From: Candidatus Obscuribacterales bacterium
GTDB lineage: Bacteria; Cyanobacteriota; Vampirovibrionia; Obscuribacterales; Obscuribacteraceae
Length of the DNA stretch: 64,000 nucleotides
Assembly (NCBI GenBank): GCA_965228855.1
Contig: CBDDIJ010000003.1
Coordinates: 256,001 to 320,000, forward strand
Reading direction: 5' to 3'
The notes under the pieces were generated by a model. That model did not search any database. It saw only the letters and a list, made by a program, of their open reading frames with translations, and was not told where the DNA came from. The position numbers were made by a program, and so were the translations under genes. Shown here piece after piece: positions 6,393 through 12,000 of this stretch (its first letter is position 1; each line of letters starts with the position of its first letter).

Positions 6393-8077
<1,685 letters not shown>

Positions 8078-8804: not shown

Positions 8805-8900
8805 TGTTACCTCCGGAGGCAAACGCGCTGCGCTGGGAGCTGGAGTGCGACTCGTCGAGGGACGATGACTCGCGTGGAGCCTCCAGGCAGTTTTCTGACT

Positions 8901-8945
8901 TTTACTATAGTAAACGATTGAACGATTTTTGTTTAGTCGTTCAAT
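8901..8945. promoter_or_regulatory. Candidate TetR operator / tetR promoter
   Basis: Perfect palindrome TTTACTATAGTAAA (8901-8914) and inverted repeat ATTGAACGA-N11-TCGTTCAAT (8917-8945), overlapping a TAAACA-17-TACTAT promoter-like pair on the - strand. Confidence 0.55.
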
Positions 8946-8969
8946 GTTAAATCGACATAAGTCGCCCAA

Positions 8970-9292
8970 CTTCTCCGCTCTCGTCCGCGCCGACCGCCCG
9001 CTGCCCCCTTGCTCCCCTGCTCCGCTACTCCGCTACTCCGCTACTCCGCTACTGCGCCTATTCTCCTCTCGGTATGTTTAGAAGGGATTTCGTATGCCGC
9101 CTGCGGAATGGGTTCCAGAGGTATTCCTCCCGAAGTATCAAATTCGCCTCGGTCTAATACTGCCAGCGGAATAGTGGAGAGCGGAGAAGGAGTTGCTGGT
9201 GAGCGGAGAAGGAGTGGTGGAGAGGGAGAAGGAGTTGCTGGTGAGTGGAGAAGGAGTGGTGGAGTCCGCGGAGGTAGGGGAGGAAGGGGAGG
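8970..9292. repeat. Low-complexity C-rich/G-rich foldback region with short tandem repeats
   Basis: (GCTACTCC)~4 at ~9016-9052; 42-bp direct repeat GGAGAAGGAGTTGCTGGTGAG.GGAGAAGGAGTGGTGGAG at 9183 and 9225; 13-bp perfect inverted repeat 8970-8982/9177-9189. Confidence 0.75.
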
Positions 9293-9501
9293 TACGCGCT
9301 TTTGTCGTTGTGATCGGCGCGTGTCGAAACTGCCAATAAAGAGGATTAGGCAAACAGTTGTCGAGTGATTTCCGCTTTTGGGAATTTGCACGGCGTTTGG
9401 AGTTGAATTCGCTGACTGGCACGGCGCTTTCGGTGTTTTGTAGTTTGGGCGACCAAACCTCGAAAGAACTGGACGCCCATCGAAAACTTGGATATGATTG
9501 A

Positions 9502-9691
9502 TATTGATACCAATAACAGATGCACAGGACTACCTGCGGTGGTCCACAACAATTGTCTGGCACGAGGCATTTAGACCCTCGTTAATAGGTAGAAATTGAG
9601 CGGAGATTGCACGGCAACCTCCGTTGATGGTGGCGCATTTAGTACCACTACAACGGGTTGTCGGCTTTGCGTTGAGTGGCTGTCCATGCGA
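9502..9691 (+). ncRNA. Unrecognised structured element B, copy 1
   Basis: Closely similar to 10171-10361; series of hairpins with compensatory changes; G-U pairs favour the + strand; TATGAT -10 at 9493-9498. Confidence 0.6.
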
Positions 9692-9848
9692 ATCTTCGTG
9701 AAATCGCTGATAAAAATGCTGTAACTGTTCCAGTGCAGAATTGGCTTGTGGTTCCGGGTTTTTGATGTTTGTCTGGCTGGTCTTCTCTCCGATGGATAGC
9801 GGCTTTCGTCGGACGCTAAAAAATTTTCTTAAAACAAAAATGGGGGAC

Positions 9849-9877
9849 TTCCGCGCGGGGAATTCTGTTGGTATATT
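9849..9877 (+). promoter_or_regulatory. Sigma70-type promoter of element A copy 1
   Basis: TTCCGC-17-TATATT with a TG extended -10 and an upstream A-tract. Confidence 0.6.
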
Positions 9878-9880
9878 AGT

Positions 9881-10092
9881 AAATGAAGACGGTGAGTGAC
9901 TTGAAACGAAGCCACTTTGAGCCGAGGGGCAATGCGGAAACGGCAGGTTGGCGCCCAACCGGATACGACAGCAAGCAGCCCGCTAAGCGTGAAGGACTAG
10001 CTGAAGCGCTTTGAAATACTGAGCCTGTGCAACAGGCAGCTAGACGGTAGCTTGAGCACCACTGCAACGTAAGTTGGGTGGTGTTTTTGTTT
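9881..10092 (+). ncRNA. Unrecognised structured element A, copy 1
   Basis: ~95% identical to copy 2 by manual count; own promoter; multiple hairpins; 3' intrinsic terminator at 10056-10092. Confidence 0.75.
10056..10092 (+). terminator. Intrinsic terminator of A1
   Basis: GCACCACTGCAAC-GTAA-GTTGGGTGGTGT followed by TTTTGTTT. Confidence 0.8.
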
Positions 10093-10138
10093 GCGGATCT
10101 TTCTCAAAAAAATATGGTGCCAAGATGTGCAAAAGTCG

Positions 10139-10167
10139 TTTACCAGCGGCATGTTGTTGGGTATGAT
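10139..10167 (+). promoter_or_regulatory. Sigma70-type promoter of element B copy 2
   Basis: TTTACC-17-TATGAT; the -10 is identical to the one upstream of B1. Confidence 0.55.
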
Positions 10168-10170
10168 AGT

Positions 10171-10361
10171 TATTGATACCAATAACAGATGCACCGGACT
10201 GCCTGCGGCGGTCCAAAATAATTGTCTGGAACGGGCATTCTAAATCCCGTTGAAATAGGTAGAAATTGAGCGGAGTTTGCACGGCAATCTCTGTTGATAG
10301 TGGCGCATTTAGTACCACTAAGACAGGTTGTCGGCTTTGCGTTGTCTGGCTATTCATGCGA
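10171..10361 (+). ncRNA. Unrecognised structured element B, copy 2
   Basis: Repeat of 9502-9691 at an offset of 669-670 nt, with structure-preserving substitutions. Confidence 0.6.
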
Positions 10362-10518
10362 CTCTCGAAGATCTGTGGTGTCGAATGTGGTGCGTATTTC
10401 TCCTGCCGGTGCAGTGCTGTTGTTCAAGCGTTCGCTGGCGGTTTGAAAAATATAGAAGCGCATGGATACTCATACTTGGCTTGCTCAAAAAAGTTTTTCA
10501 AAAACAAAAAAGGGGGTC

Positions 10519-10547
10519 TTCCCATGTGCATGATTCGTTGATATAGT
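10519..10547 (+). promoter_or_regulatory. Sigma70-type promoter of element A copy 2
   Basis: TTCCCA-17-TATAGT, TG extended -10, and an AAAACAAAAAA UP-like tract. Confidence 0.65.
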
Positions 10548-10550
10548 TAT

Positions 10551-10763
10551 AAATGAAGACGGTGAGTGACCTGAAACGAGGTCACGTTGAGCCGAGGGGC
10601 AATGCGGAAACGGCAGGTTGGCGCCCAACCGGATACGACAGCAAGCAGCCCGCTAAACGTGAAGGACTAGCTGAAGCGTTTTGAAATACTGAGCCTGTGC
10701 AACAGGCAGCTAGACAGTAGCTAAAGCACCGCTGCAACGCAAGTTGGGTGGTGTTTTTGTTTT
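10551..10763 (+). ncRNA. Unrecognised structured element A, copy 2
   Basis: Repeat of A1; terminator GCACCGCTGCAAC-GCAA-GTTGGGTGGTGT-TTTT at 10726-10763. Confidence 0.75.
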
Positions 10764-10996
10764 GGAAAGTTTTTCTGAGTCACCGCTGACGGTGCGCGCC
10801 GCCAGGCGTCGCTGCTCCCGTCTCCTGGCTTGCTGAGCGCTTCTTGGCAGGCGAGACTGGATTCACGTGAGAAGGTTCGAGCAGCAATACTGGTCTGTTG
10901 TTCAATGGATGCGAGAACAACTGCGTTTCCGAAACCCTTATGGATAGCTCTTATACATGGTTCCAGAAAGATTTTCTGAAAACAAAAAAGGGGGTC

Positions 10997-11025
10997 TTCC
11001 CACACGCATGATTCGTTGATATAGT
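10997..11025 (+). promoter_or_regulatory. Sigma70-type promoter of element A copy 3
   Basis: TTCCCA-17-TATAGT, TG extended -10, upstream A-tract. Confidence 0.65.
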
Positions 11026-11028
11026 TAT

Positions 11029-11241
11029 AAATGAAGACGGTGAGCGACTTGAAATGAGGTCGCTTTGAGCCGAGGGGCAATGCGGAAACGGCAGGTTGGC
11101 GCCCAACCGGATACGACAGCAAGCAGCCCGCTTAGCGTGAAGGACTAGCTGAAGCGCTTCGAAATACTGAGCCTGTGCAACAGGCAGCTAGACGGTAGCT
11201 TAAGCACCACGGCAACGCAAGTTGAGTGGTGTTTTTGTTTT
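11029..11241 (+). ncRNA. Unrecognised structured element A, copy 3
   Basis: Repeat of A1/A2; terminator GCACCACGGCAAC-GCAA-GTTGAGTGGTGT-TTTT at 11204-11241. Confidence 0.75.
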
Positions 11242-11529
11242 GGCAGAGTTTTTTGTTCTGTGGAGTTTTCGTGTCAGCGACATTATTTGTGTCGGCGGAG
11301 TTTTCGTATCCGCGCGGACCATGTTTTGCAGAGTACTTCGTTTCTCAGTACTTATATATAGGAAGACCTTCAATCGCGTTTTTCCTCTAGACGGCCATCT
11401 ACAAGCTCATAAAATTCACTTCGATTTCCATCGCTTGGAGGGTGCTAAGATCCGCGCAGTAAGCCGGTTTTTGCCTCTAATCAGTGGCAACTTTGTATAT
11501 CTGTTTTCTATATTTTTGAGGGTAAATGA

Positions 11530-12000
11530 ATGACGGACAAGCTTCAAGTGAAAGTCGAGCGACTCGCGCACTGCAAAGAACTCCCTCGCTACGCCACCCC
11601 TGGCTCTGCCGGCATGGACCTGACCTTTGCTTCGGAAGAGCCGATCACGGTAGCGCCCGGCAAGCGCGCCAAACTCGCTACCGGTATCAAGCTTGAAATC
11701 CCGTTCGGATACGAAGCGCAGATTCGTCCCCGCTCGGGTCTGGCCGCAAAGGCGGGCATCAGCCTCACGAATTGCGTCGGCACAATCGATAGCGACTACC
11801 GCGGCGAAGTGATGGTTTTGATAATCAATCATGGCGACGAACCTTATACATTCAGTCCAGGTGAGCGTATTGCCCAGATGGTGATCGTGCCGGTTCCGGT
11901 CATCGAACTTGTTCAGGTCGAACAAGTCGCAGACACTGAGCGGGGTGAAGGCGGTTTCGGTTCGACCGGCAAAACTGCTCTTGCCGCCAACGGCGCTTAA
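11530..12000 (+). CDS. dut: dUTP diphosphatase
   Basis: GSAGMDL, IRPRSGLA, GTIDSDYRGE, RIAQMV and RGEGGFGSTG (motifs I-V). Confidence 0.97.
   Translation: MTDKLQVKVERLAHCKELPRYATPGSAGMDLTFASEEPITVAPGKRAKLATGIKLEIPFGYEAQIRPRSGLAAKAGISLTNCVGTIDSDYRGEVMVLIINHGDEPYTFSPGERIAQMVIVPVPVIELVQVEQVADTERGEGGFGSTGKTALAANGA

Follow-up and report, generated by a model that had tools for sequence, protein, structure and literature searches.

Element B, present in two copies directly upstream of poplar-1 RNA genes in a Candidatus Obscuribacterales genome, is, as judged from sequence comparison, an uncatalogued and narrowly distributed structured element that is tied to poplar-1 and whose 3' half conserves two alternative states. 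The predicted RNAs, B1 at about 9505-9672 (roughly 165-170 nt, with both ends placed by inference) and B2 at about 10174-10342 (placed by sequence and folding), lie on the plus strand of the 64,000-nucleotide stretch of DNA that was analysed (the window). They are 86.7% identical over 211 nt and are the only copies that BLAST and a covariance model find in the 8.2-Mb genome (G000). Fold z-scores against shuffled sequences are -3.03 and -2.73 for the two copies, and the predicted B1 RNA reaches -3.29 on the plus strand and -2.36 on the minus strand. The repeated element itself is real, and it is likely to be a folded RNA gene with a predicted transcript. Our favoured explanation, which we hold with less than even confidence, is that B may be a conditional terminator that governs whether transcription runs on across the poplar-1 promoter into poplar-1.

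The downstream element A, which a first-pass annotation of the window had not recognised, belongs to the Rfam family poplar-1 (RF03041), and its three plus-strand copies, A1 (9916..10054), A2 (10586..10724) and A3 (11064..11202), score 129-134 bits against a cut-off of 110.5. The array sits between a TetR-family gene and dut-dapB-asd-dapA-RNase J, with dut following A3 at 11530. Poplar-1 reportedly comes from the study that deemed terminator-ended motifs outside 5' UTRs improbable as riboswitches. The conserved poplar-1 unit is about 210 nt long and exceeds the 141-position Rfam model by an extra 5' hairpin and a 3' terminator; such longer units, each with its own promoter boxes, occupy 9880-10090, 10550-10760 and 11030-11240 of the window. 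G000 holds six poplar-1 copies, a single unlinked one of which (L057, G000:C3:433459-433599) lies behind what appears, by eye, to be a small nucleotidyltransferase gene, and at another locus (L117, G062:C8:162000-181999) poplar-1 copies alternate every 2.2 kb or so with opposite-strand genes resembling, by eye, Ser/Thr kinases. Poplar-1 has been reported among the RNAs of a drinking-water metatranscriptome, the available text of which does not mention B (10.1101/2025.10.18.683149), and it is not named in the available main text of PMC5737381. A literature search on non-coding, structured or small RNA in Obscuribacter, Obscuribacterales, Vampirovibrionia and Melainabacteria, with limited coverage of subscription journals, returned no paper. 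Upstream of B1, the region 8970-9264 contains tandem repeats of 8 nt (8998-9053), a GGAG-rich unit of 42 nt that is duplicated (9183-9264) and two 13-nt sequences inverted relative to each other (8970-8982 and 9177-9189), and a (CAA)n run at 7943-7977 forms an in-frame glutamine-type tract near the start of a minus-strand MFS transporter gene.

The association of B with poplar-1 is strict among its relatives. Among 104 genomes of the host family, a full model built from nine copies detects B in 7 and a 3'-half model detects it in 8, spanning three Obscuribacter-like genera, always upstream of poplar-1 near dut and with the helices kept; this covariance-model search had been proposed by the first-pass annotation, whose two copies of a structured non-coding element behind a promoter are thereby supported. 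Eleven full copies come from seven genomes (two each in G000, G007, G005 and G021; one each in G001, G003 and G004), and a twelfth, from the third genus (G029), is partial, being cut by a contig end. G000 and G007 are about 95% identical at the element. Each of the 12 copies is directly followed by a poplar-1 in the same orientation, and B and A were duplicated as a unit in four of the seven genomes with full copies, both of which favour conditional termination. Against it stand the observations that poplar-1 carries its own promoter boxes and terminator (A1 has its own upstream promoter and a hairpin with a T-run at about 10050-10090), so that B is not the leader of a promoter-dependent gene; that A3 has no B ahead of it; and that most poplar-1-bearing family genomes yielded no B: of the other family genomes searched, 55 of 60 contain poplar-1 and 7 of 103 contain B. 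The family-wide model searches score few candidates per genome, and distant copies may escape them; unfiltered searches upstream of dut, with the full model in 40 genomes and the 3' model at 62 loci, found only the G029 copy. Two genomes of the host's own genus gave no match, but in both a contig end falls some 400 bp or less from dut, and the absence of B from them is therefore not shown. The best dUTPase relative (76%, in 6 of 64 collection parts scanned) comes from a record that also carries B, a metagenome pattern scan gave three loci and no new variants, and neither viral contigs (exact pattern) nor plasmids or phages yielded a match to B.

The position occupied by B is itself a recurrent slot. 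In G005 and G021, B begins just past a divergent tRNA-Thr, which in G000 is about 31 kb away. In five other genera, the stretch from tRNA-Thr to poplar-1 holds other long non-coding elements that are rich in hairpins and led by a promoter (L074-L076, L078/L080/L081/L083/L084, L087, L100/L105, L110), which are conserved within the genus where several genomes were compared and one of which ends with a hairpin and six T's; further genera have only a short gap there. Profile searches in either direction gave no match between these elements and B, short shared words being visible by eye only. In G012, two diverged slot-element paralogues each precede a poplar-1 copy. That other genera place their own conserved, promoter-led folded elements in the same slot favours a close rival to our model, one that we consider quite possible: B would be a stand-alone, trans-acting small RNA that was merely duplicated together with poplar-1. 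The lack of a downstream reading frame for B to control points the same way, as does its own promoter. Exact complements of B1 segments in G000 are scattered 11-14-nt matches with no standout target, and Hfq was not found in that genome, which both weigh against a trans-acting role. Rho, CsrA and Ro60/TROVE likewise gave no match, in a genome that is 95% complete, so that the absence of these four proteins is not proved. G000 nevertheless contains several multi-copy small RNA genes.

B has conserved promoter boxes and, directly behind them, a strongly conserved domain. The TATGAT reported ahead of both copies is confirmed, with a -35-like hexamer 17 bp upstream in each: the predicted promoters lie at 9470..9498 for B1 (plus strand; TGGACG, 17 bp, TATGAT) and 10139..10167 for B2 (plus strand; TTTACC, 17 bp, TATGAT). 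Across the 11-copy alignment the -10 box reads TATGAT in ten copies and TATTAT in one, the -35 box is T(G/A)GACG-like in nine, and the spacer between the boxes varies. The region 8900-11550 holds seven promoter-like sites versus 2.2 in shuffles. A conserved sigma-70-type promoter is thus predicted for B, from which the RNA would start near 9505. The conserved structured domain follows immediately (9506..9559 in B1, plus strand) and consists of a GAYACCRAUA leader, hairpin 1 and UGUCU. Hairpin 1 (9527-9545 in B1, 10196-10214 in B2, both on the plus strand) is 98.9% paired over the 11 copies, with two pairs changed on both sides and its G-U pairs kept, and the A-U to G-C swap described between B1 and B2 is present. 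The domain could be shut by either of two alternative helices, CAGAUG/UUGUCUG or GAYA/UGUC, in registers that are 95% and 100% paired, and the choice between them is ambiguous. An RNAalifold closing helix, UACC/GGUA, is not claimed, because it is invariant within the genus and not evident in G021. Hairpin 2 (9562..9582 in B1, 10230-10251 in B2, plus strand) maintains its stem while its loop changes freely in sequence and length; its rewritten stem still pairs, as had been noted, through ACGAGG/CCTCGT in B1 and AACGGG/CCCGTT in B2. B presents, in sequential order, a promoter, a highly conserved 5' domain, a free linker hairpin, two exclusive helices and a U-rich tail, an arrangement like that of transcriptional switches and in favour of our model.

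This architecture matches no catalogued class. On B's strand, Rfam gave no match at E values up to 10, and the only match, of 15.9 bits on the opposite strand, touches the 3' end; five homologous B loci gave only sub-threshold matches (E 1.1 and 4). In T-box leaders, a UGGN bulge pairs with the tRNA end. The corresponding letters in B are UGG in four of the 11 copies, UAG in five and UGA in two, which together with the missing Rfam match leads us to reject a T-box. A 6S identity is rejected as well, since a 6S RNA is one rod with paired ends and a central bubble, B has a separate 5' domain and the only 6S-model match in G000 lies elsewhere, below the cut-off; SRP and RNase P identities are also rejected. 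That sub-threshold locus (L113, G000:C2:813651-813889; 28.8 bits) follows a TTGACA-17-TATGAT promoter and has complementary ends, and is plausibly a divergent 6S RNA.

The first-pass annotation had emphasised a recurring loop motif and, from it, multivalent protein binding. The recurrence holds in G000, where GCATTTAG or GCATTCTA occurs twice per B copy, but it is lineage-specific: GCAUU(U/C)A is found in four of the 11 full copies (those of G000 and G007) and is absent from the other seven, and the apical loop also varies among copies. GCATTTAG is under-represented genome-wide (133 seen versus 235 expected from base composition). Because the motif is missing from most full copies, multivalent binding through it is unsupported, and a Csr/Rsm-type sponge is rejected on the same ground and on that of the undetected CsrA. 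Early hairpins are known from toxin mRNAs. They are also described for phage mRNA in the available part of PMC4615214, and this precedent, together with the doubled motif, is what speaks for a group of highly improbable readings in which B is a sponge acting through its GCAUU(U/C)A loops, the mRNA of a type I toxin, a leader-peptide attenuator or the end of a mobile element. These are largely refuted: no frame of at least 12 codons keeps its start and length on either strand of the 11 copies, and neither a transposase nor a reverse transcriptase is present among the 18 flanking proteins scanned. A mobile-element end, the identity that the first-pass annotation had itself raised against its proposal, and a retron RNA are both rejected in view of only two tandem copies, flanked by the TetR gene and dut, and of the lack of any plasmid, phage or viral-contig match.

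Further evidence for our model comes from the 3' half, where an antiterminator-like and a terminator-like helix are mutually exclusive and both conserved, the double-sided changes coming from one lineage. In B1 (plus strand), the early hairpin (9599..9626) pairs X (9599-9608) with X' (9612-9626), and the late rod (9612..9663) pairs X' with X'' (9651-9663) around an apical hairpin (9628-9650); the equivalent B2 segments are X 10269-10278, X' 10282-10296, X'' 10321-10333 and an apical hairpin at 10298-10320, with the tail starting at 10334. X' is common to both pairings. The AGCGGAG/CTC(C/T)GTT and T(G/A)GTGG/CCACTA pairings that had been listed are indeed present in the sequence; the AGCGGAG hairpin is missing from the minimum-energy fold because the longer rod excludes it, a point overlooked in the first-pass annotation. 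X:X' is 90.9% paired over the 11 copies, a level reached by 0 of 500 shuffles and by none of the slid controls (39-58%), and the two U's that end X are invariant, their early-hairpin partners being invariant or near-invariant A's. X:X' has six double-sided changes, all of them in the two G005 copies and dependent on alignment register, so that the pattern amounts to one lineage's rewrite plus many one-sided changes. The X':X'' helix at the base of the rod is 98.8% paired; covariation in the rod and apical hairpin is weak, being reached by 26-367 of 500 shuffles, and this counts against the model together with the dependence of X:X' on G005.

Folding predictions, which are equilibrium folds of truncated sequences rather than kinetic simulations, are consistent with an exchange between the two states. 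When growing transcripts of the 3' domain alone are folded, each of the 11 copies makes the early hairpin before the rod, and the rod state is lower by 1.7-11.4 kcal/mol. Mid-transcript P(X:X') is 0.64-0.97 in all 11 copies. In full-length folds the rod displaces the early hairpin in ten of 11 copies; the exception, G004, remains largely in the early state (P(rod) 0.22), and G005_B1 shows a mixture of the two states (P(rod) 0.61), both of which detract from a general switch. The partial G029 copy, outside the training copies of both models, argues for the two states: its early hairpin is weaker, and the same rod is built from rewritten letters. What the conditional terminator lacks is a conserved helix joining the 5' domain to X: the mean upstream pairing of X ranges from 0.07 to 0.69 with differing partners, and G021 carries about 40-55 extra nt after hairpin 2, between the two parts. 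The missing coupling suits the stand-alone small RNA, for which the early hairpin would guide folding and the 5' domain would bind a protein or target. The rod, closed further by pairing of X with the tail, would then protect a constant 3' end arising from weak termination or trimming. X:tail pairing is possible at 90.9%, as this requires, but it lacks covariation, since 418 of 500 shuffles reach that level.

Behind the long rod, all 11 copies carry a weak U-rich tail with 4-6 T in 9 nt (9664..9674 in B1, plus strand), which can also pair back to X. It is much weaker than the poplar-1 tails, and a terminator scan called none at element B. The earlier statement that no U-tract terminator is visible therefore stands as regards any called terminator, but not as regards the weak T tract after the rod, and a tail so poor for intrinsic termination weighs against our model. 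The failure to detect Rho can be counted in its favour. The suggestion that the 3' end is processed or read through towards A keeps its plausibility as far as read-through is concerned, given the weakness of the tail and the lack of a Rho match in G000. These same two points, the imperfect rod of about 20 bp and the strict adjacency to poplar-1 also speak for an unlikely alternative in which B is the 5' part of an always-read-through B-spacer-poplar-1 precursor that is then cut, for example in the rod, and serves as a second promoter with a processing leader or as a co-made partner RNA of poplar-1. A partnership of that kind finds no consistent duplex: over nine pairs, B pairs with poplar-1 at differing sites and no better than shuffles do (2-30 of 30 shuffles as good). 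Kissing of the apical loop with the self-complementary poplar-1 loop was rejected too, as the matching letters are, by eye, not kept across copies. Nor does a constitutive precursor need an early hairpin, and the spacer that it would contain is unstructured and unconserved (fold z +1.7 to -1.5).

Beyond the tail, a conserved 19-bp block (9678..9696 in B1, 10348..10366 in B2) stands 165 bp before the -35 boxes of A1 and A2, respectively, and in 12 of 12 copies this distance is 163-166 bp, although most pairs of spacers behind the block share only 21-50% ungapped identity (two close pairs reach 62% and 70%). Such fixed spacing across diverged DNA favours the conditional terminator, and the stand-alone small RNA leaves it unexplained unless the block is an unrelated DNA site. 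The block probably does not belong to the RNA but is a DNA site that serves the poplar-1 promoter, which would place the B1 3' end near 9672. An inverted partial copy lies at 9792..9800, about 55 bp before the A1 -35 box, with similar sites at 10454-10471 and 10940-10948, and the best non-B match of the block profile in G000 is likewise inverted, 55 bp before the -35 box of the unlinked poplar-1. The apical hairpin, moreover, is similar to a repeat, read in reverse, that lies ahead of other poplar-1 copies (four matches versus 0.3 in shuffles). These two resemblances speak for regarding B mainly as a DNA control region of the poplar-1 promoter, with protein-binding repeats and incidental hairpins. 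We think this very unlikely, because G-U pairs are kept on the plus strand in hairpin 1, X:X' and the rod, hairpin 2 is rewritten yet pairs, and the 5' end keeps a conserved promoter of its own. In 82 poplar-1 promoters without B the block profile has 15 matches versus 4.2 in base shuffles, but only four fall near -165 and these belong to two genomes, and in 91 B-less promoters a 5-mer scan peaks near -140 and -100 instead; a general -165 site is therefore rejected, and these positions count against the DNA-site reading. A CACCAC direct repeat with 12-bp spacing lies about 105-125 bp before the poplar-1 -35 box at three loci (L055, L139, L154) and precedes each poplar-1 copy in an array beside a gene that looks by eye like fumarase; on the reverse strand it resembles the B apical hairpin.

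Taken together, the conserved promoter-like boxes and helices, the two exclusive pairings and the fixed position beside poplar-1 lead us to prefer, tentatively, the conditional terminator. We propose that B, which sits directly ahead of poplar-1, probably yields an RNA of about 165 nt from a promoter of its own. In this RNA, an early X:X' hairpin is predicted to give way to the X':X'' rod, growing down from the apical hairpin, once X'' has been made. If the exchange is fast, polymerase would stop at the weak U-rich tail and release a short B RNA. If the early hairpin is held by kinetics, or by a protein or ligand on the invariant 5' domain, transcription would not stop; it would cross the poplar-1 upstream sites and promoter and end at the poplar-1 terminator, giving either a B-poplar-1 transcript of about 580 nt or occlusion of the poplar-1 promoter.

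On this reading B would work like an attenuator, ligand binding being only hypothetical. It resembles strand-displacement switches, such as the ZTP riboswitch (PMC10085676) and the trp leader and SAM riboswitch (PMC4615214), as described in the available parts of those sources, in having a promoter-proximal conserved domain, an early helix and a later, displacing terminator-like hairpin. The pairing of its early helix is comparable to the 0.91 canonical pairs of the trp antiterminator given there (PMC4615214). B differs from known riboswitches and attenuators in having no Rfam aptamer match, leader peptide or conserved coupling helix, a weak U-tract and no protein-coding gene directly downstream. 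The available text of PMC5449094 offers a precedent for switch-controlled non-coding RNAs, in that B12 riboswitches control Rli55, AspocR and EutX: a terminating switch stands ahead of a non-coding RNA, as we propose for B, but with a known B12 aptamer and a promoter shared with the controlled RNA, whereas poplar-1 has a promoter of its own and the B 5' domain is of no known class. Poplar-1 itself is the constant downstream neighbour of B and was duplicated with it, yet B neither matches the poplar-1 model nor pairs with it consistently. The treatment of terminator-ended motifs outside 5' UTRs as improbable riboswitches, in the part of PMC5737381 available, is a further argument against our model. 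Since both a coupling helix and a dependent downstream gene were sought and neither was found, we do not file B as a riboswitch. A bolder possibility, which we consider improbable, is that B represents a new class of sensor RNA: its 5' domain would bind a signal and its output would be a second non-coding RNA instead of a protein, with the switch terminating right at the edge of a protein-binding site of the poplar-1 promoter and different genera swapping sensors in this slot before a constant effector.

Within this bacterial family, poplar-1 is nearly universal and present in multiple copies, and it has no known function. Should B prove to be no more than a stand-alone small RNA, it would still represent an uncatalogued family with a conserved transient helix and a narrow range of three genera. 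Its 5' domain, belonging to no known class, is a candidate, small and open to assay, for a new RNA that binds a ligand or protein, and a conserved switch ahead of poplar-1, if true, would offer a direct handle on poplar-1 control.
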